From: an uncultured Pseudomonadota bacterium
GTDB taxonomy: Bacteria; Pseudomonadota; Alphaproteobacteria; Rs-D84
Direction of reading: 5' to 3'
Length of the DNA stretch: 64,000 nt
NCBI GenBank assembly: GCA_946613885.1
Contig: CAMOGA010000006.1
Span: forward strand, 4,309-68,308
A model generated the notes under the pieces. The model saw nothing but the letters and a program-made list of their open reading frames with translations, made no database searches and was not told the origin of the DNA. Positions 41,771-52,797 of the stretch are shown here, one piece after another. The stretch's first letter is position 1; the number at the start of each line of letters is the position of its first letter. Position numbers and translations under genes: made by a program.

Positions 41771-43078
41771 ATGAAAAAATATACGTTAACTTTGGCATTG
41801 GCGGCAGTTTTGCCACTGGTTTCTGCGAATGCTTATGAATATGTCAATAATAATACAGAAAGTTACAGCACTGTTCGCCCGGTCAAAGCAACTGCGCATA
41901 AAACTACAACAACAACACGTAAAACAGGCGGATATAAAAATACTATAACAAATAATTTTTATTATGCACAACCACAAGAAAGTTCTTATACCGTAGAACC
42001 AAAACGTGGTATCAAAAGACCTGCGGGATATACTGTGTATAAACAAGATTATAACGATGATGATTATTATTATGGGGCCCCTGCAAAAAGACAGGTCGCA
42101 AAAAAACAGACGCGTGAATATTATTCTTACGCAGAACGTAAATACTTTTTGGCGCACCCGTTCTTTCAACCGTTAAAGGGTCATTTTGGTTCTGTGACAG
42201 ATATTGCATATGCAAAAAACAGTTTTAAATTTGATATGTTGGATGCGTCTGTATTAGATATTGATACAACTTCCTCGACATATGGTCAAATTGTGGCGGC
42301 TGGCACATTGAATTTAAATGCTAAACAAGAAACAACACAATTCTTGGTCAAAGAAGATGTCAGTTATGGTATAACTGATACATTGGCTTTGATATTAATG
42401 GCACAATACGATAAAACAAAAACAAGTTTCAAAGATTGGTCCAGTGGTGATCCTGCGGATTCTTTGTCTGATTCTGGATTGAATATTTTTGGTATTGGTA
42501 TTCAAAATCGTTTTGTTGATACTGATGAATGGATTGCAATGGTTGATGCATCATTTTTACATCAGAAAAATACTGCCAACATATTTGAAGGTGGTGTAAA
42601 GGCGGGTTATAAAATCGATAACACAACAATCTATGGATTGGCACGTATCAGATATATTGATATCACAGAAGGTGATTCTTATGGCGCATTTGTCAAAGAT
42701 GATACAGGTGATTATTTAATGTTATCTTACAGAAATGATACCAAAGATGTCTTTGAAGCCGAGGCAGGATTGGGCGCATTCGCTGTGTTGGGACACGATT
42801 TTACTTTAAATGGCGAATTGATTTATGGTGTGTATGATTGGCATAATCAATTAAGTGTTCGTGGCGCATTCGGTTGGCAACCAGGCGACCAATTCGCTCT
42901 GAATTTGTATGCAATGACATCTTTGTATGATTCTGCAGATGGCAAAACAAAGAAATATATGAACTATGATGTTAATCCTGAAGTTTCCGGAACAAATTTA
43001 GTTTATACCACAGGAAATTATAAACTGAAAGATTATAACGAATGGCGTATCGGATTACAGGCAATATTATATTTTTAA
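41771..43078 (+). CDS. Hypothetical outer-membrane beta-barrel protein
   Basis: Signal peptide, alternating beta-strand patterns, C-terminal ...AILYF. Confidence 0.65.
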   Translation: MKKYTLTLALAAVLPLVSANAYEYVNNNTESYSTVRPVKATAHKTTTTTRKTGGYKNTITNNFYYAQPQESSYTVEPKRGIKRPAGYTVYKQDYNDDDYYYGAPAKRQVAKKQTREYYSYAERKYFLAHPFFQPLKGHFGSVTDIAYAKNSFKFDMLDASVLDIDTTSSTYGQIVAAGTLNLNAKQETTQFLVKEDVSYGITDTLALILMAQYDKTKTSFKDWSSGDPADSLSDSGLNIFGIGIQNRFVDTDEWIAMVDASFLHQKNTANIFEGGVKAGYKIDNTTIYGLARIRYIDITEGDSYGAFVKDDTGDYLMLSYRNDTKDVFEAEAGLGAFAVLGHDFTLNGELIYGVYDWHNQLSVRGAFGWQPGDQFALNLYAMTSLYDSADGKTKKYMNYDVNPEVSGTNLVYTTGNYKLKDYNEWRIGLQAILYF

Positions 43079-43107
43079 TGTTTGATTAATTCTGGTTGTG
43101 GTATTGC

Positions 43108-43971
43108 ATGATGAAAAAATATTTATTGGTTTTGGGTTTAGTGGCGTACAGTATGTCTGCAAACGGGGCAGGTGTCGTTTTGTCTGATACTGCGCTGGAT
43201 GAAGAAGATAATACATTTGTTGAAGAAAGTGTTTCTTCTTCAAAATCTGAAACCAATTTTACACGTACAACACCACAATCTAATTCGTATGTCGGACAAA
43301 ATGCGTTTCGTGATTTGGTATCAAACGATACATCCGATCCATTGTTTTTAACAGGTGATAATAATTTTTTATCTGATACATATATTTCTTTTTTTAATCG
43401 CAAATTTAGATTCGGGCAATATCTGGATTACGGAATAAACAATGATTTAGTGTTGCACGCAAATATATTATATCAATTAGATACTTCGGGTCGTGATGAA
43501 AATGGTTTTTCTGCAACCGAATTTGGCGGTGTGTATCGTATGAATCACGGTTTCGGGAAAATGCGTATTATTTCTGATGCGTTGTTCGGATTAAAATTAT
43601 GGGGTTCATCACATGTGCGAACACCGGAATATGCAGATTCTTCGTATTATGCAGGATTACGTTTTGGTCGTCAATATTATGGTGTCACATTGGCAGGCAC
43701 AATAAAATCTACATGGGTGTTTGATAATGCACGCGGTTTATCGTATATAGATTTTATACCAGAGGCATATTTTAGATTAAAATATAATTTGCGTACTGGC
43801 ATAGGATTAGATTTTCGTAAATCCACAAATACTCATTTATTGGAAAACCAAGAATGGTTAAATCTGAAATTAGTAAAACAATTTGGTAATACGCAATACG
43901 TTGCACGGTTTGATTATGAATTTGAATCTTCTGAGATTCAGATTGGTGCAAATGTAAAGATATTGTTTTAA
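43108..43971 (+). CDS. Hypothetical outer-membrane beta-barrel protein
   Basis: Signal MMKKYLLVLGLVAYSMSANG, amphipathic strands, C-terminal ...VKILF. Confidence 0.65.
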   Translation: MMKKYLLVLGLVAYSMSANGAGVVLSDTALDEEDNTFVEESVSSSKSETNFTRTTPQSNSYVGQNAFRDLVSNDTSDPLFLTGDNNFLSDTYISFFNRKFRFGQYLDYGINNDLVLHANILYQLDTSGRDENGFSATEFGGVYRMNHGFGKMRIISDALFGLKLWGSSHVRTPEYADSSYYAGLRFGRQYYGVTLAGTIKSTWVFDNARGLSYIDFIPEAYFRLKYNLRTGIGLDFRKSTNTHLLENQEWLNLKLVKQFGNTQYVARFDYEFESSEIQIGANVKILF

Positions 43972-45230: not shown

Positions 45231-45301
45231 TTTTACTTTTATTTTATTTTATGTTTATTTGTGATATAATCATTGTATTAAATAATAAAAGGTATTTCAA
45301 G

Positions 45302-45667
45302 TTGGTAAATAAAAATTCTGAATTTGCATTGGCGGTGGCAAATCTGGCGGCGGCGGCAATGTCTGCTAACCCAAAATTATCAATGTCTGATGCAGTAAAA
45401 CAGGCGCGTGAATCTTTGGCCAGTTCATCAATAACTAAACAGCAAATTGCAGATTCTGTGACGGATGATGCGATATTTTGTTTTGAAGATGGTACGTGGC
45501 ATGTAATGTTAAAACGTTATATACGGCGAAAATTTAACTTAACCCCAAAACAATATTGTGAAAAATGGGGATTGCCAATGAATTACCCGTTTGTGGCAAA
45601 GAAATATTCAATAATTCGTTCAAAGATAGCCAAAAAAAATGGATTTGGTAAAAAACAGGGGAAATAA
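45302..45667 (+). CDS. mucR: MucR/Ros family transcriptional regulator
   Basis: SVTDD.I.C.EDG....LKR......LTP.QY..KWGLP..YP.VA..YS..RS.IAK..G.G; TTG start after AAAGG. Confidence 0.85.
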   Translation: MVNKNSEFALAVANLAAAAMSANPKLSMSDAVKQARESLASSSITKQQIADSVTDDAIFCFEDGTWHVMLKRYIRRKFNLTPKQYCEKWGLPMNYPFVAKKYSIIRSKIAKKNGFGKKQGK

Positions 45668-47680
45668 ATGGTTGTAAAAAAAATTGTTTCTGAAATATCT
45701 AATCGGCGTAAATATGTGCATGGCAAGAAAGGTAAACTGGAAACACCACATAAAAAATTAAAACAATGGCAACCAGATGGTAAAATGGGCAAGTTTTCCC
45801 GTATAGCAGGTTTGGGCGCAATAGATTTGTCGTGGTTTTTATTTTGTCTTGGAAAATATACTGCCAAAGATTTGAATACTATTTTGTTGGATAACAAAAT
45901 AATAGATACTATACAGAAAAAACATAAGAATTTGGAAATACAAGATTCTGATTCTAAATTTAAACAATTTTTTAAAAAAATTGAAAAATCTAATCCGCGC
46001 ATGGCTGCTACATTAAAGTTATGGATGTTGTACAGTTTATTAACAATTATGTCAATTGGCGGAATTAAATTGGCACAGCGTGATAAAGATAATAGCGGTA
46101 AACAGGTCAAAACTGAACAAGTTATTGATAACAACAACCCTAAGGATGTTGTTGAATCGGCGATAATATATGAAGAAGAAGAAAATTCACAAAAAGTAAT
46201 TGATGACACTAAAAAGACAGGTGAATCAAAAATTTCAGATGATGTAAAAACACCAAATGTTGTGACTTATGATATTTCAGATGTAAATTTTGCGGATAAT
46301 TTTTTAGATGATAATTGGGATGATATAGTTGTAAGTTTGCTGGAATTTGAAACGTGGCGTGACAAGGCAAAATTGCATTCTGGCGAATCGCGTTATACCT
46401 ATGGTCCGGGTATAACTTGGGTTTATACCAAAGATAAAAATGGAAAACTTAGACAACATGCATGTGTCGGTGATTATAAGCAACGGGCATCAAATTTTAG
46501 TGTTGAACAAAAATTGCAACAGACCAGATATCATTATGAATACGAGACATTACCCGCTATAAAAAGAAAATTAAAAAAATACGGGTTTACAGAAATTACA
46601 GATCAACAAATGTTGGGATTGTTTATTGCCGGATATCAATTGCCTGCTAAATTAGATGACGGTAATTTTTCTACAAAATTAGATAATGGTAAGTATGAAA
46701 AAGGTAAATATATAGGAATCGTTCATAAATTATCTGATGCAGGATCAAATGTGCAAAAGCAGGTTGATTCTTTTATTGCAGGAAAAGAGGTTCGCGAAAA
46801 ATGGCGTGAAGGTACAAATAAACGTCGTTGGTGGTGTGCGATGATTTATATGGGGTATATAACCACGGACGATTTAATAAATCTGGACAGGGATGCTTTT
46901 TCTTCAATCAATATTAATACAATTTTAAAAAATGGACATTTTGTATATGATGCCACCACCATAGAGTATGTTTTGGCGCATGCTAATAATCCAAATAGAA
47001 ACTCTGTTAAAGATTTTATGAAAGAACGTAACATATCTATAAATAATAATTCTTCAAAGCATCAAAAAAACATTTCAAGCAATGCTGTGGAAAACCCATC
47101 AATGAAAAAAACAATTAAAGGGTTACAGGAATTTAAAAACGGTAATTATAAAATCGCAATTAAATATTATCAAGAAGCCATTGCTTTGGATGCCAATAAT
47201 ATGGAGGCATACAGCAGTTTAGCCTTATCATATAAAAAATTAGGCGACCAAACACATTCTATTGCTGATTATGAAAAAACAGCAGAAACAGTCAAAGCAT
47301 GCAATGCACAAATGAACCGTAATAGAAACTTATTACACGATCCAGATGTCAAGGCATCTACATATTACAATGCCGGTTTGGCGCGTGAAGAAATGGCAAA
47401 ATTGTATGAAAAAGATAACAATATAGAGCAAGCAATTGAAAATTATAACAAGGCCAAACAGAATTTTGAAACAGCATATGCCAACGCAGAAGAATTTAAT
47501 AGTTCAGAACGTATGACAATATATAAACAAGCGCAACAGCGCGTTGAGAAATCTGTCGAAACATTACAGATAAAAAACAATCAAACAAATAAACGTAATG
47601 CATTTGGCCAAGGAAAAACAAAATTATTAAATAAAATGGCTAATCAATATACGCGTAATACAGGTAATACCAAGGATTAA
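45668..47680 (+). CDS. Membrane-anchored hypothetical protein: lysozyme-like domain + TPRs
   Basis: TM LWMLYSLLTIMSIGG; TPR motifs (AIKYYQEAIALD..N.EAY..L, YYNAGLA); central domain shared with the next gene. Confidence 0.65.
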   Translation: MVVKKIVSEISNRRKYVHGKKGKLETPHKKLKQWQPDGKMGKFSRIAGLGAIDLSWFLFCLGKYTAKDLNTILLDNKIIDTIQKKHKNLEIQDSDSKFKQFFKKIEKSNPRMAATLKLWMLYSLLTIMSIGGIKLAQRDKDNSGKQVKTEQVIDNNNPKDVVESAIIYEEEENSQKVIDDTKKTGESKISDDVKTPNVVTYDISDVNFADNFLDDNWDDIVVSLLEFETWRDKAKLHSGESRYTYGPGITWVYTKDKNGKLRQHACVGDYKQRASNFSVEQKLQQTRYHYEYETLPAIKRKLKKYGFTEITDQQMLGLFIAGYQLPAKLDDGNFSTKLDNGKYEKGKYIGIVHKLSDAGSNVQKQVDSFIAGKEVREKWREGTNKRRWWCAMIYMGYITTDDLINLDRDAFSSININTILKNGHFVYDATTIEYVLAHANNPNRNSVKDFMKERNISINNNSSKHQKNISSNAVENPSMKKTIKGLQEFKNGNYKIAIKYYQEAIALDANNMEAYSSLALSYKKLGDQTHSIADYEKTAETVKACNAQMNRNRNLLHDPDVKASTYYNAGLAREEMAKLYEKDNNIEQAIENYNKAKQNFETAYANAEEFNSSERMTIYKQAQQRVEKSVETLQIKNNQTNKRNAFGQGKTKLLNKMANQYTRNTGNTKD

Positions 47681-47683
47681 ATT

Positions 47684-48748
47684 ATGAATATAAAAAATTC
47701 TAAATCTCAAAAACTTGGACCAAATATGCCGGAAAAATTAAAATTGTGGACGGCGTACGTTTTATTTGCCTGTATGTCGATTGGCGGAATTAAAATTGTA
47801 CAAAATTTAAATAATTCTAAATCTACCAGCACAGAATTAATCAAAGAACCAATACAAAATAATGAACCGCACATAGAATCTATGGCAGAACCACAAGGCA
47901 TAGGCGAGGGGATAACAGGTTTGTATGATGTTGCAGATTCAAATTTTAAAATAAATTTTATCAATGATAATTGGAATGCGATAGTCGCAGGATTGTTAGA
48001 ATTTGAAACGTATTTTGAAAAACCGCATTTGAACAGGGGTGAATCGCGATATACTTATGGCCCCGGTTTAACGTGGGTGTATATAGATGGAAAGCAATAT
48101 CCGTGTACCGGTAAATATAAAGTGATGGCGGATAATTTTTCATCAGAACAAATCTGGGATCAGGTAAAACAGCACTGTTTACGAAATGGCGAAGCATTGG
48201 ACAGAATCCAGACCGCATTGATAAAAAACGATTTTTCAGAAATATCACAAAAACAATTATTGGGATTGTTCTTTGCGGCATATCAAAGCCCCGGAGCAAT
48301 AGGGGGAATTATAAAACGTTTAAAAGAAGCGGGTGACGATGAACAAAAAATAGTGGACTCGTTTATAGCAGGACGTGAAATTAATCGTAAATGGCGTACT
48401 GGTACAAATAAACGTCGTTGGTGGTGTGCAATGATTTATATCGGAAAAATAACTGTTGATGATATATTATTTATGGACAGGGATGCCTTTACATCAATAA
48501 AAATCGATAAAATACATAAATCTGGACATTTTATAACTGATAATTCAACTGTCGATTATGCGCTGGACAGAAACAATTTTAATACAGAAACAGTTCAAGA
48601 ATTTATGAAATCTGAATCACAAAATATTGCATATCAAAAAATAAAGACATCAAATTTTAATCGTGGTATTCAAAAGATAAAAGAATTAAACAAACGTCAC
48701 AAAGAAGATATGTTTGTTTATACTGATAACGAACATACAATGGCCTAG
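47684..48748 (+). CDS. Paralog of the preceding gene without TPRs (lysozyme-like domain)
   Basis: Shared LLEFET, GESRYTYGPG.TWVY, GTNKRRWWCAMIY, DRDAF. Confidence 0.65.
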   Translation: MNIKNSKSQKLGPNMPEKLKLWTAYVLFACMSIGGIKIVQNLNNSKSTSTELIKEPIQNNEPHIESMAEPQGIGEGITGLYDVADSNFKINFINDNWNAIVAGLLEFETYFEKPHLNRGESRYTYGPGLTWVYIDGKQYPCTGKYKVMADNFSSEQIWDQVKQHCLRNGEALDRIQTALIKNDFSEISQKQLLGLFFAAYQSPGAIGGIIKRLKEAGDDEQKIVDSFIAGREINRKWRTGTNKRRWWCAMIYIGKITVDDILFMDRDAFTSIKIDKIHKSGHFITDNSTVDYALDRNNFNTETVQEFMKSESQNIAYQKIKTSNFNRGIQKIKELNKRHKEDMFVYTDNEHTMA

Positions 48749-48757
48749 GGGGATGAT

Positions 48758-50770
48758 ATGAAGGTTTATGTAAATACTGAAAATAAAACGTGGAAAAAAT
48801 ATAAAATTGATTTTGAAAAAATTGCCAATGCGGCTGTATCTGCTGTATACAAAGATTCTGAGGTATCAATTAATTTAATAGATGATAAACAAATTCACAA
48901 ATTAAATAAACAATATCGTGGCATCGATAAACCAACAAATGTTTTATCTTTTGAATTAGGAGATGATATTTTATTGGGTGATATTTTTATATCAATTGAT
49001 ACTGTTATCCGCGAAGCCAAAGAAGCCGGTATATCGGTTGAAGAACATGTTGCGCATATGGTTGTTCATGGTATGTTGCATTTACAAGGTTTTGACCATA
49101 TCAAAGATGCAGAAGCCAAAATAATGGAAAATAAAGAAATTAAAATATTAAAAAAATTGGGATATAAAAATCCTTATGCTGATACAGATGATATTGTGTG
49201 TGATAACAAATCGTGTTGTCCAGGACGGTTCATAACAAAATTAGAACAAATCAAAATTCGTGAAAACAGCATAACATGGTATTTATTGGCATCGGTTTTT
49301 GGAATTGTTGCGTCTTTTGGTTTTGCGCCGTTTTATTTGTGGTGGGCATCTATCATTGGTATCGGTGCAATGTATTGGATGATGGGGCAACAAAACAATA
49401 AAATCAGTTTTATAAAATCTTGGTTGTTGGCTTTTCCTTTTGGTGCGTTTTATGGAATTGCAATGTTTTGGTGGGTTTTAAATTCTATTTATGTAATTCC
49501 AGAATTAACGCAACAATTTGCAATCTGGACAATTCCAGGATTAATAGGTATTGGTTTGATTTGTGGAATAATATTATCTTTGCCGTTTGCGGTAATTCGT
49601 TGTATCCGGCAAAAACCGGCCAACAGGGCGATTTTATTCGCAGCGGTTTGGACATTGGTTTTGTGGGGGCGAGAATGGTTTTTAACTGGTTTTCCATGGA
49701 ATCCGATATCTAATATTACCATGAATATGCCAATGATTGTAAATTCAATGTCTCTGTGGGGGGCATTGGGGCTAAGTTTTATAATTATTGGATTAACTGC
49801 GTCATTTGTTGATATGTGTCGCGATAAGAAACCGGCAATATACGTATTCATTATGTATGTATTATTGTTCATTATTGGTTGTGGATACGGTTATTTCAAT
49901 ATGTATTTATCAGACAGACAAGATATTGACAATACACCAATTATCAGAATTATACAACCCGCAAAATCCGCTGTATACAAAATGCCAACTTCAAAACAAG
50001 AGGCACATGAAATCGCAAATCAAAAAATACGTGATTTGTTCATTTGGGCAACAAAAGACAATGAAATAATTCCTGATATAATCGTGTTCCCAGAAACATC
50101 ATATCCATATACAATTGTTGATGATGATTTTCCATTGGCGCGTATTTTGAATAATAATATTATCATGGGTGTAAATCATTATAATAATGGCAATATGTAT
50201 AATTCCATGGTGTTTGCAGATAAAAGTGGCAAGATAAAACATCTGTATAGTAAATCACACCTGGTGCCGTTTGGGGAATATCGTCCGTTTGGAGATATAA
50301 TACCAACACCTGGACAATTAAGTGCTGGAACAGGGGCAGAGGTTTTTTCTATCAATACGCAATACGGTGATTTTATCGTTGCGCCTGCAATTTGTTATGA
50401 AATCGTGTTTTCTGATTCTTTGATTCCATATAAATCAAATGCGAACGCAATCATAAATATTACAAACGATACATGGTTTGGAACAACGCCTGGGGTTTAC
50501 CAACATTTGGATATGGTACGCAGATACGCAATTGAATCAGGCCTGCCAATTATTCGTGCAAATTATTCAGGAATCAGTGGTTTTATCATGCCTGATGGAA
50601 ATGTGGAATCATATCTGCCGGTTGGTCAAAATGGGGCTTTGGACGGATATGTGTGGGGCGCACACACGACCCCATACAGGGCATTAGGACGTGATTTATG
50701 GATGGCGATTATTTTGATGTTTTCAATAATTGCTTTAATATCCATACGCGTATTTCCGAAGAAAGATTAG
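48758..50770 (+). CDS. ybeY-lnt: Fusion: rRNA maturation RNase YbeY + apolipoprotein N-acyltransferase Lnt
   Basis: YbeY KPTNVLSF, LGDI.IS, HGMLHLQGFDH; Lnt FPE, K.HLVPFGEY, ICYE, NDTWFG; one uninterrupted 670-aa frame. Confidence 0.9.
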   Translation: MKVYVNTENKTWKKYKIDFEKIANAAVSAVYKDSEVSINLIDDKQIHKLNKQYRGIDKPTNVLSFELGDDILLGDIFISIDTVIREAKEAGISVEEHVAHMVVHGMLHLQGFDHIKDAEAKIMENKEIKILKKLGYKNPYADTDDIVCDNKSCCPGRFITKLEQIKIRENSITWYLLASVFGIVASFGFAPFYLWWASIIGIGAMYWMMGQQNNKISFIKSWLLAFPFGAFYGIAMFWWVLNSIYVIPELTQQFAIWTIPGLIGIGLICGIILSLPFAVIRCIRQKPANRAILFAAVWTLVLWGREWFLTGFPWNPISNITMNMPMIVNSMSLWGALGLSFIIIGLTASFVDMCRDKKPAIYVFIMYVLLFIIGCGYGYFNMYLSDRQDIDNTPIIRIIQPAKSAVYKMPTSKQEAHEIANQKIRDLFIWATKDNEIIPDIIVFPETSYPYTIVDDDFPLARILNNNIIMGVNHYNNGNMYNSMVFADKSGKIKHLYSKSHLVPFGEYRPFGDIIPTPGQLSAGTGAEVFSINTQYGDFIVAPAICYEIVFSDSLIPYKSNANAIINITNDTWFGTTPGVYQHLDMVRRYAIESGLPIIRANYSGISGFIMPDGNVESYLPVGQNGALDGYVWGAHTTPYRALGRDLWMAIILMFSIIALISIRVFPKKD

Positions 50771-50922: not shown

Positions 50923-51357
50923 TTAAATTTTCCCTATAATCAAACAATCTATCATTGCACGGTATGGATCATCGTATTTTCGTAATATTGATAAAGTAAT
51001 ATTATCCAACATATAACAATTTCCAAACGCATCAAATGCAAACCAAAATAAATCGTTATATCCAAAAATTGTTTTATTAGATAAATTTTTATAATTACAA
51101 ACGTCTTGGTTAAATTTAATAATCGAAGGCATCGGATATTTTATTTTGCGATCTATTTCGTTTGGACCAAACACATATCCAGACCCCATCGTTATACCAG
51201 AACATTTTGTATATAAATCCTGTAAAAACTTGGGCAATATTGCGATATGCATTTGTTGTAATTTGGTGTTTATAATATTAACATCAACCAAATGTTCCGG
51301 TGGAAAAATGTTTGCACCGCGTGATTTCATCAAAGATAAAAATTCATCACTTGTCAT
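50923..51357 (-). CDS. SMI1/KNR4 (SUKH)-like protein
   Basis: LP.FL.DLY..C.G...G...FG pattern, C-terminal FG......Y.LD. Confidence 0.5.
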   Translation of the reverse strand: MTSDEFLSLMKSRGANIFPPEHLVDVNIINTKLQQMHIAILPKFLQDLYTKCSGITMGSGYVFGPNEIDRKIKYPMPSIIKFNQDVCNYKNLSNKTIFGYNDLFWFAFDAFGNCYMLDNITLSILRKYDDPYRAMIDCLIIGKI

Positions 51358-51359
51358 TT

Positions 51360-51869
51360 TTATTCATTTCCCCGTCCTGATAAAAAATTATTAAATGCAG
51401 ATTGGCTTAATCTGTCCGAAGTGGCATTACCACCATCGCCGCCACCGCCAGTATGTGTTGTTAAATAAATCTTTTTTTCAGGATTTGGTAAAAATACAGT
51501 TCTTGCATCGCTTTGTTCGATAATAAAACGGTCTAAATTAAAAGAATGTGGAAATGTCCAACATAAAAACATATTTTCAATTTTTAATTCGCCACCCCAT
51601 AACAACGGTATTTTAAAACGAATAGATATGTTATCTGGCAAAGAACGTCCCATTACTAAATCGATAAATTCATGTTGTGGCAAATTCATAAATACGATTT
51701 CATCCATAGAATCTGTTAAAGAAGCCAAAAATTCACGACGTAAAGAGGCATACTTTTTAAACCAATCGGTATCCAGCGAGCATTTTACAGGACTATATTC
51801 CATAACAGGCATATCTTCCAATCCTAATTTTGCCAATCGTTCCAAAGCACTATGTTCATTTAATTGCAT
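51360..51869 (-). CDS. Hypothetical protein, degenerate HNH-like
   Basis: SIRFKIPLLWGG...IENMFLC...PH resembles HHIIPL..GG...N...C...H with the His residues replaced. Confidence 0.5.
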   Translation of the reverse strand: MQLNEHSALERLAKLGLEDMPVMEYSPVKCSLDTDWFKKYASLRREFLASLTDSMDEIVFMNLPQHEFIDLVMGRSLPDNISIRFKIPLLWGGELKIENMFLCWTFPHSFNLDRFIIEQSDARTVFLPNPEKKIYLTTHTGGGGDGGNATSDRLSQSAFNNFLSGRGNE

Positions 51870-51888
51870 GTTTTATTTACACTCTTTA

Positions 51889-52797
51889 CTATATATTCTT
51901 AACATATTGTATAATCGTGTCAATATATTCTGAATATGCATCAAAATTATCGGCGTCAACATCAGACATCTCGTCAATTTGATGTTCAGAAACAAATTGC
52001 CTTAATTCGTCAATTGATTTGAATATTAACACAGAATCATTTGGTTGGTATTGATTCATCGTATCCAGAATAAACGGCGTAATATTAATCCGAATATCTT
52101 CCAACGTTTCGGTAAATACGGATTGCAATTTGTCAACCGCGCGTTGCATGTTATCCATTTTTGCATCAATTGCACCGATATATAAAATTTCATTTGGGGC
52201 AATGGCAAATAAATTTGGGCTAAACCCAGAAATTGTAGGATTTTGTTTGATAGTGTATCCTGCATCGGAAAACATTTGCGTAATTTCAGATGCATAAGGA
52301 TTTTGTTGTGAATACGATTGTTGCTTTTGGGGGGCTTCATGTTTTACTTGTTGTTGCTGAGCAACGATTTGTGCGATGTTTTTTGGTAAATTTAAACGTG
52401 GTGGACGCGATAATGGTATTTCCGGCATTGGTGCGGGGGTATCGGCATTTTTTTCTGGTTCTGTTGCGGTATTAACCTGTGTTTGTTGTGGAACAGGAAT
52501 ATTTTGTTGTTCTGGTTGGATTTTTGTTATGTTTGTTGCAGGGGATTTTTTTGTCCCAGATTCTGTTTTGTATATTACAAATAATCCAATTAAAAATATC
52601 AGTAATGCAACAATCACAGAAACATAAAATCCGGTAGCAATTGGTGTATGTGATGCCTGTAATTGTGCCAATTCTTCCCAATGTTTTTCATAAAATAAAT
52701 TAAATCCATAATTTATATTTAACCAGAAAGACAAACCCAACAAAGTGGATGTGCCCAACAATATAGATAATAAAATACTTTCAAATTTATTTTGCAT
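51889..52797 (-). CDS. Hypothetical membrane protein (2 TM, P/Q-rich linker, globular C-domain)
   Basis: Long ORF with 2 N-terminal hydrophobic segments and a low-complexity linker. Confidence 0.7.
   Translation of the reverse strand: MQNKFESILLSILLGTSTLLGLSFWLNINYGFNLFYEKHWEELAQLQASHTPIATGFYVSVIVALLIFLIGLFVIYKTESGTKKSPATNITKIQPEQQNIPVPQQTQVNTATEPEKNADTPAPMPEIPLSRPPRLNLPKNIAQIVAQQQQVKHEAPQKQQSYSQQNPYASEITQMFSDAGYTIKQNPTISGFSPNLFAIAPNEILYIGAIDAKMDNMQRAVDKLQSVFTETLEDIRINITPFILDTMNQYQPNDSVLIFKSIDELRQFVSEHQIDEMSDVDADNFDAYSEYIDTIIQYVKNI

Follow-up and report, generated by a model that had tools for sequence, protein, structure and literature searches.

What do two neighbouring genes that join a membrane anchor to a lysozyme-like domain do in a bacterial chromosome, outside any phage context? 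The question is raised by positions 45668-48748 of a 64-kb stretch of DNA from an uncultured alphaproteobacterium of the order Rs-D84 (contig CAMOGA010000006.1, assembly GCA_946613885.1; the whole stretch of 64,000 nucleotides (nt) that was analysed is called the window hereafter). An earlier note on this DNA had taken the two open reading frames (ORFs) for domesticated, anchored muramidases of a new subfamily. The modelled fold, a chain of homologies and a core-gene synteny now support this proposal, enzymatic activity being predicted. We consider that the two proteins, A and B, are most likely membrane-tethered periplasmic peptidoglycan glycosidases of GH24 (phage lysozyme) descent. In addition, sequence comparisons of close relatives, a point that the earlier note did not see, show that the lysozyme module is exchanged among them at a fixed locus.

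The tandem pair

A and B are both encoded on the plus strand, as first described, and with 43% identity over ~370 residues (BLASTP, E 8e-89), a likeness well above what chance would give, they are tandem paralogs (Table 1). They share a hydrophobic helix ending in MSIGGIK (A, 'LKLWMLYSLLTIMSIGGIKL'; B, 'LKLWTAYVLFACMSIGGIKI'), followed by a linker and a domain, an arrangement already noticed earlier, in which we find the domain to span ~240 amino acids (aa). Within it both proteins carry the motif LLEFET-x9-GESRYTYGPG(I/L)TW, whose spacer had been given as 8 residues and is actually 9, and further on the motifs EI(T/S)..Q.LGLF.A.YQ.P and GTNKRRWWCAMIY. The 29-nt identity reported between the genes is exact (46811-46839 = 48401-48429) and encodes GTNKRRWWC, in frame in both. 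A hidden Markov model (HMM) of the domain finds only these two copies in the window. Tetratricopeptide repeats (TPR) had been assigned to the first protein, and Pfam TPR matches do occur in A only (TPR_1, TPR_2 and TPR_11, residues ~476-600); B has neither these repeats nor the N-terminal domain of A.

Table 1. Positions in the window of the two paralogs, their parts and the adjoining genes (TM, transmembrane; pLDDT, predicted local distance difference test; dS, synonymous divergence; L110, a close relative of the window locus).
Feature	Positions	Strand	Description and basis
Paralog A	45668..47680	+	670 aa; N-domain, TM helix, linker, lysozyme-fold domain, TPR, tail; ORF and AlphaFold2 (mean pLDDT 82.8)
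A, basic helical N-terminal domain, predicted cytoplasmic	45668..45994	+	aa 1-109; charge, hydropathy, AlphaFold helices
A, predicted TM helix ending in MSIGGIK	45995..46075	+	aa 110-136; hydropathy peak 1.5; AlphaFold helix 110-141
A, acidic disordered linker	46076..46261	+	aa 137-198; pLDDT <50 over 141-193; composition
A, predicted lysozyme-fold domain of GH24 descent	46262..47038	+	aa 199-457; pLDDT >90, domain HMM, hhalign
A, predicted catalytic Glu E228; loop Glu E240; Thr T244; GTNKRRWW	46349-46351; 46385-46387; 46397-46399; 46811-46834	+	hhalign, conservation, codons
A, hypervariable stretch	46421..47170, core 46522-46714	+	C-lobe of the lysozyme domain and first TPR; identity to L110, dS, metagenome contig
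A, TPR superhelix	47093..47665	+	aa 476-666; Pfam TPR families; AlphaFold helices 477-666 (pLDDT >90); Foldseek TPR matches
Paralog B	47684..48748	+	354 aa; short basic N-terminus, TM helix, linker, lysozyme-fold domain, conserved tail
B, predicted TM helix	47738..47803	+	aa 19-40; hydropathy peak 1.68
B, predicted lysozyme-fold domain of GH24 descent	47918..48631	+	aa 79-316; Foldseek; hhalign 97% to PF00959-positive relatives
B, predicted catalytic Glu E108; loop Glu E120; Thr T124; GTNKRRWW	48005-48007; 48041-48043; 48053-48055; 48401-48424	+	hhalign, conservation
mucR/ros-type regulator	45302..45667	+	PF05443 ROS_MUCR, E 1.3e-22; directly upstream of A
ybeY::lnt fused gene	48758..50770	+	670 aa; PF02130, PF20154 and PF00795 in one ORF; 9 nt downstream of B

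The shared domain is modelled with a lysozyme fold

The shared domain matches no family in Pfam, NCBIfam or PHROGs, and sequence and family-profile searches of the PDB returned no relative of it, only TPR or chance matches. Its structure was therefore approached through models. AlphaFold2 placed residues 80-310 of B at a pLDDT of ~90 from an alignment of 14 sequences; with 56 sequences, the domain of A (200-455) exceeded 90, as did its TPR region. A structure search had been put forward in the earlier note as a check on its lysozyme idea, and in Foldseek the top 17 PDB matches of the B model are all GH24 muramidases, with probabilities of 0.98-1.00. The best is AcLys of A. baumannii (6et6; E 3.8e-3, TM-score 0.69 normalised to the target); the others include PHAb10/11, AbLys1, R21 (3hde), DLP12 RrrD, P22 lysozyme and the muramidase domain of SpmX (6h9d). 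In the viral library as well, the top structural matches are lysozymes and endolysins. The secondary structure elements of the B model follow in the lysozyme order, a helix, a sheet of three to four strands, then a helical lobe. We conclude from the models that the domain takes up the alpha+beta fold of lysozymes, in which the N-lobe holds a hairpin and the C-lobe is helical. Foldseek matches of the longer A model were dominated by the TPR, and nothing was gained on its N-domain.

Same-locus relatives link the domain to GH24

A profile search of 1.84 billion proteins delivered a family of 107 cluster representatives, some of which match just the N-terminal 160 positions of the profile. Ten of these N-terminal-only relatives were scanned, and 6 passed the Pfam cutoff for Phage_lysozyme, PF00959 (23.5-35.4 bits, cutoff 22.3), the match sitting where the window proteins carry their domain. 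The PF00959-positive relatives occupy the same locus and have the same N-terminal anchor, TPR and C-terminal tail as the window proteins, and their central domain is 31-34% identical to annotated Vibrio phage lysozymes (E 3e-7). When a 76-member alignment of the window-type domain was compared by hhalign with eight of these canonical domains, probabilities of 96-97% were obtained over 220-225 columns (E 1e-9 to 1e-10). A third type of module (EG....Y.D.GG.G..T.G.G) aligned at 95-97% with both the window type and the canonical type. The fourth type (P0107/P0113) reached a weak 40% with the others, and its link is not counted as shown. Descent of the domain from GH24, which the earlier note had proposed as a divergent likeness, is thus supported by way of relatives at the same locus; membership of the family is transitive.

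Catalytic residues

The hhalign comparison with the PF00959-positive relatives also pairs the residues expected in the active site. E108 of B (E228 of A) falls on the catalytic Glu of 'AAEGV', T124 (T244) on the Thr of 'WTIGFG' (T26 in T4 lysozyme), and G126 and G128 on the glycines of the same motif, while GTNKRRWW falls on GMHWRRW, i.e. on the GLxxRR helix; the lysozyme motifs thus come in the order that had been claimed for them. In the B model, E108 stands directly after helix 97-107 and ahead of the beta-hairpin. The catalytic E11 of T4 lysozyme likewise stands directly after the first helix. Conservation was counted in 76 diverse family members, with the numbering of B: E108 and G128 are invariant (76/76), T130 is found in 75, T124 in 74, E120 in 72 and G126 in 67 of them.

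The third residue of the GH24 triad is the one that differs. The earlier note was essentially right that Glu and Thr are kept, that Asp is lost and that one residue is added; it had Asp replaced by His or Asn, and here hhalign disagrees, placing at the Asp position a variable residue, R118 in B and S, K, A or G across the family. At 9 residues from the Glu, the family has a His or Gln. The hairpin loop exceeds that of GH24 lysozymes by one residue, and two residues past the Asp-aligned position it carries a nearly invariant Glu, E120 in B and E240 in A, whose spacing to T124 (four residues) is fixed in 76/76.

Loss of the Asp raises the question of whether the domain cuts at all. By analogy with SpmX, the proteins could be largely non-catalytic anchors or scaffolds that bind peptidoglycan and set a complex in place; the TPR and the cytoplasmic N-domain would serve for this, and both do suggest protein docking. 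The loss parallels the D20L/R changes of SpmX, which keeps its Glu and yet acts in localisation (bioRxiv 10.1101/418723), and the SpmX domain is among the structural matches given above. Unlike SpmX, the window family has retained the Thr (74/76) and gained the loop Glu (72/76), and its architecture is the reverse, with an N-terminal anchor and the domain predicted in the periplasm. Moreover, the alternative, canonical modules found at the same locus have the full E/D/T triad, so that the conserved requirement at this locus looks like catalysis. A scaffold of this kind seems to us quite unlikely.

Architecture and membrane topology

Hydropathy gives B a single hydrophobic helix, preceded by 18 residues; its flanks contain 5 K/R versus 1 D/E before the helix, and 2 versus 6 after it. 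In A, residues 1-45 comprise 14 K/R and 3 D/E. Since these charges fit the positive-inside rule, the N-termini are predicted to be cytoplasmic and the lysozyme domains of both proteins to face the periplasm. A second, weakly hydrophobic helix of A (aa 43-61) has basic flanks on both sides and no counterpart in B, for which reasons it is probably not membrane-spanning and was not counted as such. The N-domain module of A is also found in proteins with other types of lysozyme domain.

Another element recurs at the opposite end. A short C-terminal tail, K.IAFN.GI.KIKNK...VYPF.NEY.A, is conserved in every module type, whether TPR are there or not (e.g. P0012, P0033); it is kept in B (48632-48745), while in A a degenerate form of it follows the TPR. 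This tail may serve for docking, perhaps with the TPR as partner.

The central module is exchanged at a fixed locus

All module types occupy the same locus, where we call the family gene X; it lies between mgsA and ybeY::lnt. The clearest case is that of loci L100 and L001. Their flanking proteins are 96-98% identical, whereas X is of the canonical type with TPR in the first (654 aa) and of the window type without TPR in the second (497 aa). Only the first 169 residues (69% identity) and the last 29 (86%) of the two X proteins can be aligned; the centre cannot. Module types are interspersed on the tree of ybeY::lnt. In the tree of the domain itself, A and B belong to two sister clades, and relatives carry one or the other; the two types are found together in the window and in L110, where the tandem partner is 97% identical to B. 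A reverse tandem was observed in another lineage, in L106 (3678-6416) and L107 (406-3078), a short window-type gene (368-390 aa) being followed by a long canonical, PF00959-type one (515 aa).

Variation of the same sort is seen at a finer scale within A. Compared with L110, nucleotide identity is 97-100% in the flanks and falls to 58-86% over the hypervariable stretch (Table 1). The lysozyme domain of A has a dS of 0.36 against L110, compared with 0.03-0.07 in the flanks, and a ratio of nonsynonymous to synonymous divergence (dN/dS) of 0.23. Ratios of 0.17-0.25 overall indicate purifying selection, and the high dS, taken with a dN/dS below 1, indicates that alleles were imported and held under purifying selection, not that the gene is decaying. 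In a metagenome contig (run X5), 167 letters unrelated to it stand in place of the core of the stretch, and a further assembly breaks up at this point. A copy of paralog B as the source of the L110 patch was considered and rejected, as the patch is no closer to B. The insertion within this stretch, modelled by AlphaFold as an extra beta-hairpin (residues 332-348), contains a 27-nt tandem duplication (46644-46692, AKLDDGN / TKLDNGK), and ten of its residues (GNFSTKLDNG) are deleted in L110.

Because such an exchange is unusual for an enzyme that works on its own wall, we considered that A and B might be a weapon or a feeding tool against other bacteria, the exchange reflecting an arms race with target walls or with lysozyme inhibitors. 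The module swap between nearly identical flanks, the interspersion on the ybeY::lnt tree and a hypervariable patch, seen both between near-identical strains and in metagenomes, would all be expected from it. A conserved N-terminal part joined to a variable enzymatic part also resembles polymorphic effectors. The way of life proposed for these bacteria also counts in its favour. Genomes of Enterousia and the order Rs-D84 measure 0.75-1.0 Mb and are devoid of upper glycolysis, respiration, the TCA (tricarboxylic acid) cycle and the standard transporters, so that a dependence on partners has been proposed (PMC12306168, the study from which JBKSMS01, a carrier of the family, also comes). However, no small immunity-like gene adjoins X, the downstream gene being always ybeY::lnt or a second family member; no secretion-system genes adjoin it either, and the predicted N-in anchor would retain the domain in the periplasm of the producer. 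A dN/dS below 1 also speaks against a weapon. Finally, the module types are homologous over the 220-column domain (the fourth being linked weakly), and therefore correspond to an exchange of alleles, not to the capture of unrelated toxins. On these grounds a weapon is rather unlikely, though likelier than the other rival readings.

A related and doubtful idea is that the mgsA/ybeY::lnt locus is a fixed 'lysozyme cassette' site, where a constant anchor frame takes up, by recombination, interchangeable and highly diverged modules selected by conflict. The conflict would be the breaching of, or feeding on, partner bacteria, or else escape from lysozyme inhibitors. If true, this would be a new polymorphic system attacking cell walls, with no linked immunity gene or known secretion apparatus, in an organism presumed to live at the expense of its neighbours.

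Genomic neighbourhood and distribution

All genome matches come from Alphaproteobacteria of the gut or rumen, uncultured and in several cases named Candidatus Enterousia (order Rs-D84). In the large clade, every syntenic locus examined has the same order: two outer-membrane-protein (OMP)-like genes, mgsA on the minus strand, mucR in some cases, X, ybeY::lnt and a conserved minus-strand trio. In a second clade (L012-L015) the family gene has another locus, which these genomes share: it is divergent from a minus-strand run of a 252-aa unknown gene, a PBP5-type D,D-carboxypeptidase and holB, and lies upstream of a MiaB-like radical SAM gene. From this synteny, we infer that Candidatus Enterousia and the other Rs-D84 Alphaproteobacteria carry the family gene as a resident part of their core genome.

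The absence of phage context remarked on in the earlier note agrees with these neighbours and with the search for viral relatives. No phage genes were found near the locus in the loci read, and no family member in IMG/VR (pattern-based scan) or among 50,697 phage genomes and 72,556 plasmids. One match to phage MT836259 (E 1) was taken as chance: it is a 406-aa ORF without lysozyme motifs, itself not scanned. No PADLOC model was matched at E up to 0.01 by A or B, by mucR or by representatives of three further module types.

Two further explanations can be judged here. The first is that of a remnant or domesticated lysis gene, similar to a signal-anchor-release (SAR) endolysin and used for programmed lysis or vesicle release. 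Endolysins have this fold, the SAR endolysin R21 (3hde) among them, and the anchor, in which Gly, Ser and Thr occur, is of only moderate hydrophobicity. Nevertheless, no holin, spanin or other phage gene lies nearby, no viral relatives were found in the collections named above, the housekeeping synteny is conserved across the whole order, and the long cytoplasmic domain, the 40-65-aa linker and the TPR are atypical of SAR endolysins; we hold this origin to be highly improbable. The second is that of a VirB1-like enzyme opening the wall for an envelope machine such as a type IV secretion core. Such machines usually need a dedicated glycosidase, but these enzymes are normally encoded inside their own clusters and are of the SLT/GH23 type, while our gene is unlinked to secretion genes in all loci read. 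Module swapping would also be left unexplained, and we find this role very unlikely.

As to expression, the distances from mucR to A, A to B and B to ybeY::lnt are 0, 3 and 9 nt, and terminator-like sites around the locus are not enriched (4 found, 3.8 expected in shuffled sequence). This close spacing together with the lack of terminator enrichment makes an operon from mucR through ybeY::lnt plausible. The sequence words sampled were absent from the RNA runs listed. One 9-bp inverted repeat with a terminator-like score (46392-46416) lies inside the codons for the conserved YTYGPGIT of A and is probably a coincidence of coding sequence.

Several features of the neighbours deserve mention. The start of mucR is uncertain, TTG at 45302 giving 121 aa and ATG at 45251 giving 138 aa. 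Among relatives (L001-L011, L100-L109) the gene is present or absent between mgsA and X, with the rest of the locus unchanged; in the window mgsA is on the minus strand, on the mucR side of the pair. The ybeY::lnt fusion occurs in every syntenic relative read, with 56-74% identity in the more distant ones. Upstream of mgsA, the two adjoining outer-membrane-like ORFs (41771-43971; 435 and 291 aa), whose counterparts in relatives have no Pfam match, are 38-68% identical across relatives compared with 77-92% for mgsA, and so evolve much faster. Downstream of ybeY::lnt, three tightly packed minus-strand genes (50923-52797; 144, 169 and 302 aa) are found in all relatives (L001 13448-15471). An RHH_4 gene of 70 aa directly precedes this trio in the gene calls of the relatives and is the only one there with a Pfam match.

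Proposed function

In the reading that we prefer, A and B would be bitopic inner-membrane proteins with their N-terminus in the cytoplasm and one TM helix, and the flexible linker of 40-65 residues would hold the domain in the periplasm, within reach of peptidoglycan. The Glu ending the first helix (E228/E108) would be the general acid, with the hairpin Thr (T244/T124) kept. Two types of catalysis could follow. Either the enzyme would be a muramidase using the loop Glu (E240/E120) as second carboxylate, or it would be a lytic transglycosylase, for which no second carboxylate would be needed, an option resting on the chemistry of GH23 and GH104. The TPR of A and the conserved C-terminal tail would probably dock partner proteins, cotranscription with ybeY::lnt would be probable, and the catalytic module would be repeatedly exchanged between strains by recombination.

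Several observations tell against this proposal. Neither A nor B matches PF00959 at E up to 1, and a scan of the 76 members at E up to 10 listed 25 families without PF00959 among them. A direct hhalign comparison with the RrrD, T4 and P22 lysozymes was not significant (probability <1%), which is why membership in GH24 is described above as transitive rather than direct; the reference alignments were of the RrrD type or of RrrD+T4+P22. Searches for a diverse GH24 profile gave only near-identical RrrD relatives. The canonical Asp (D20 in T4 lysozyme) is lost, and changes of this kind weaken the activity of SpmX (bioRxiv 10.1101/418723). Anchor hydropathy is modest (1.5-1.7), and with the second weakly hydrophobic helix of A, the predicted topology is tentative. 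Lastly, both the replacement of a catalytic module between flanks 96-98% identical and the hypervariable patch are unusual for a housekeeping wall enzyme and fit genes under conflict better. Taking all this together, that A and B form a resident core enzyme cutting the cell's own wall, for growth and division, has in our estimate about an even chance of being correct.

Comparison with known systems

The family would add to GH24 a subfamily missed by Pfam, NCBIfam and PHROGs. Like the lysozymes of T4, P22 (gp19), R21, RrrD and AcLys (6et6), its domain is modelled with two lobes, a Glu ending helix 1, a beta-hairpin with Thr-x-Gly-x-Gly and a G-x-x-x-RR(W) helix. It differs from them by its length (~240 aa, with a conserved extra C-terminal part), by a lost Asp, a hairpin loop longer by one residue and a new conserved Glu, by its fusion to a cytoplasmic domain, a TM anchor, a linker and TPR, and by belonging to chromosomal core genes without a lysis cassette. 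The changed catalytic hairpin bears on how muramidases and lytic transglycosylases interconvert. Membrane-bound lytic transglycosylases and MltG have the layout that we propose here, a tethered periplasmic enzyme with a single catalytic Glu cutting glycan strands, but they belong to other fold families (GH23/GH102/GH103, YceG), none of which is among the structural matches listed for the domain. In SAR endolysins, the helix directly precedes the catalytic domain, whereas the linker intervenes here and A has in addition a 109-aa cytoplasmic domain.

With polymorphic toxin and effector loci, the window locus shares a conserved N-terminal module and tail and an enzymatic centre swapped among close relatives at a fixed place; unlike them, it has no adjoining immunity gene, no linked secretion system and no PADLOC match. 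This locus-level exchange is more surprising than the domesticated GH24 lysozyme itself. In genomes of ~0.9 Mb, each retained gene is informative, and a gene that is kept universally while its enzymatic centre is swapped between close relatives points to an important function, possibly under conflict. It may offer a handle on wall building, or on dealings with neighbours, in uncultured gut bacteria that depend on partners.

A close precedent is SpmX of the Caulobacterales, which are Alphaproteobacteria too. This membrane protein likewise contains a GH24 domain that has been domesticated, in which Glu is kept and Asp is replaced, and its role is a housekeeping one, not that of a phage protein. 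SpmX is restricted to the Caulobacterales and consists of an N-terminal muramidase domain, a proline-rich middle and two C-terminal TM helices, without TPR; with P22 lysozyme its domain shares 40% identity, and it has not conserved the Thr. The family described here, from Rs-D84 gut bacteria, reverses the order of the parts, keeps the Thr and diverges far more in sequence. It would thus be a second case, independent of SpmX, in which a phage-type lysozyme became a core membrane protein of Alphaproteobacteria.

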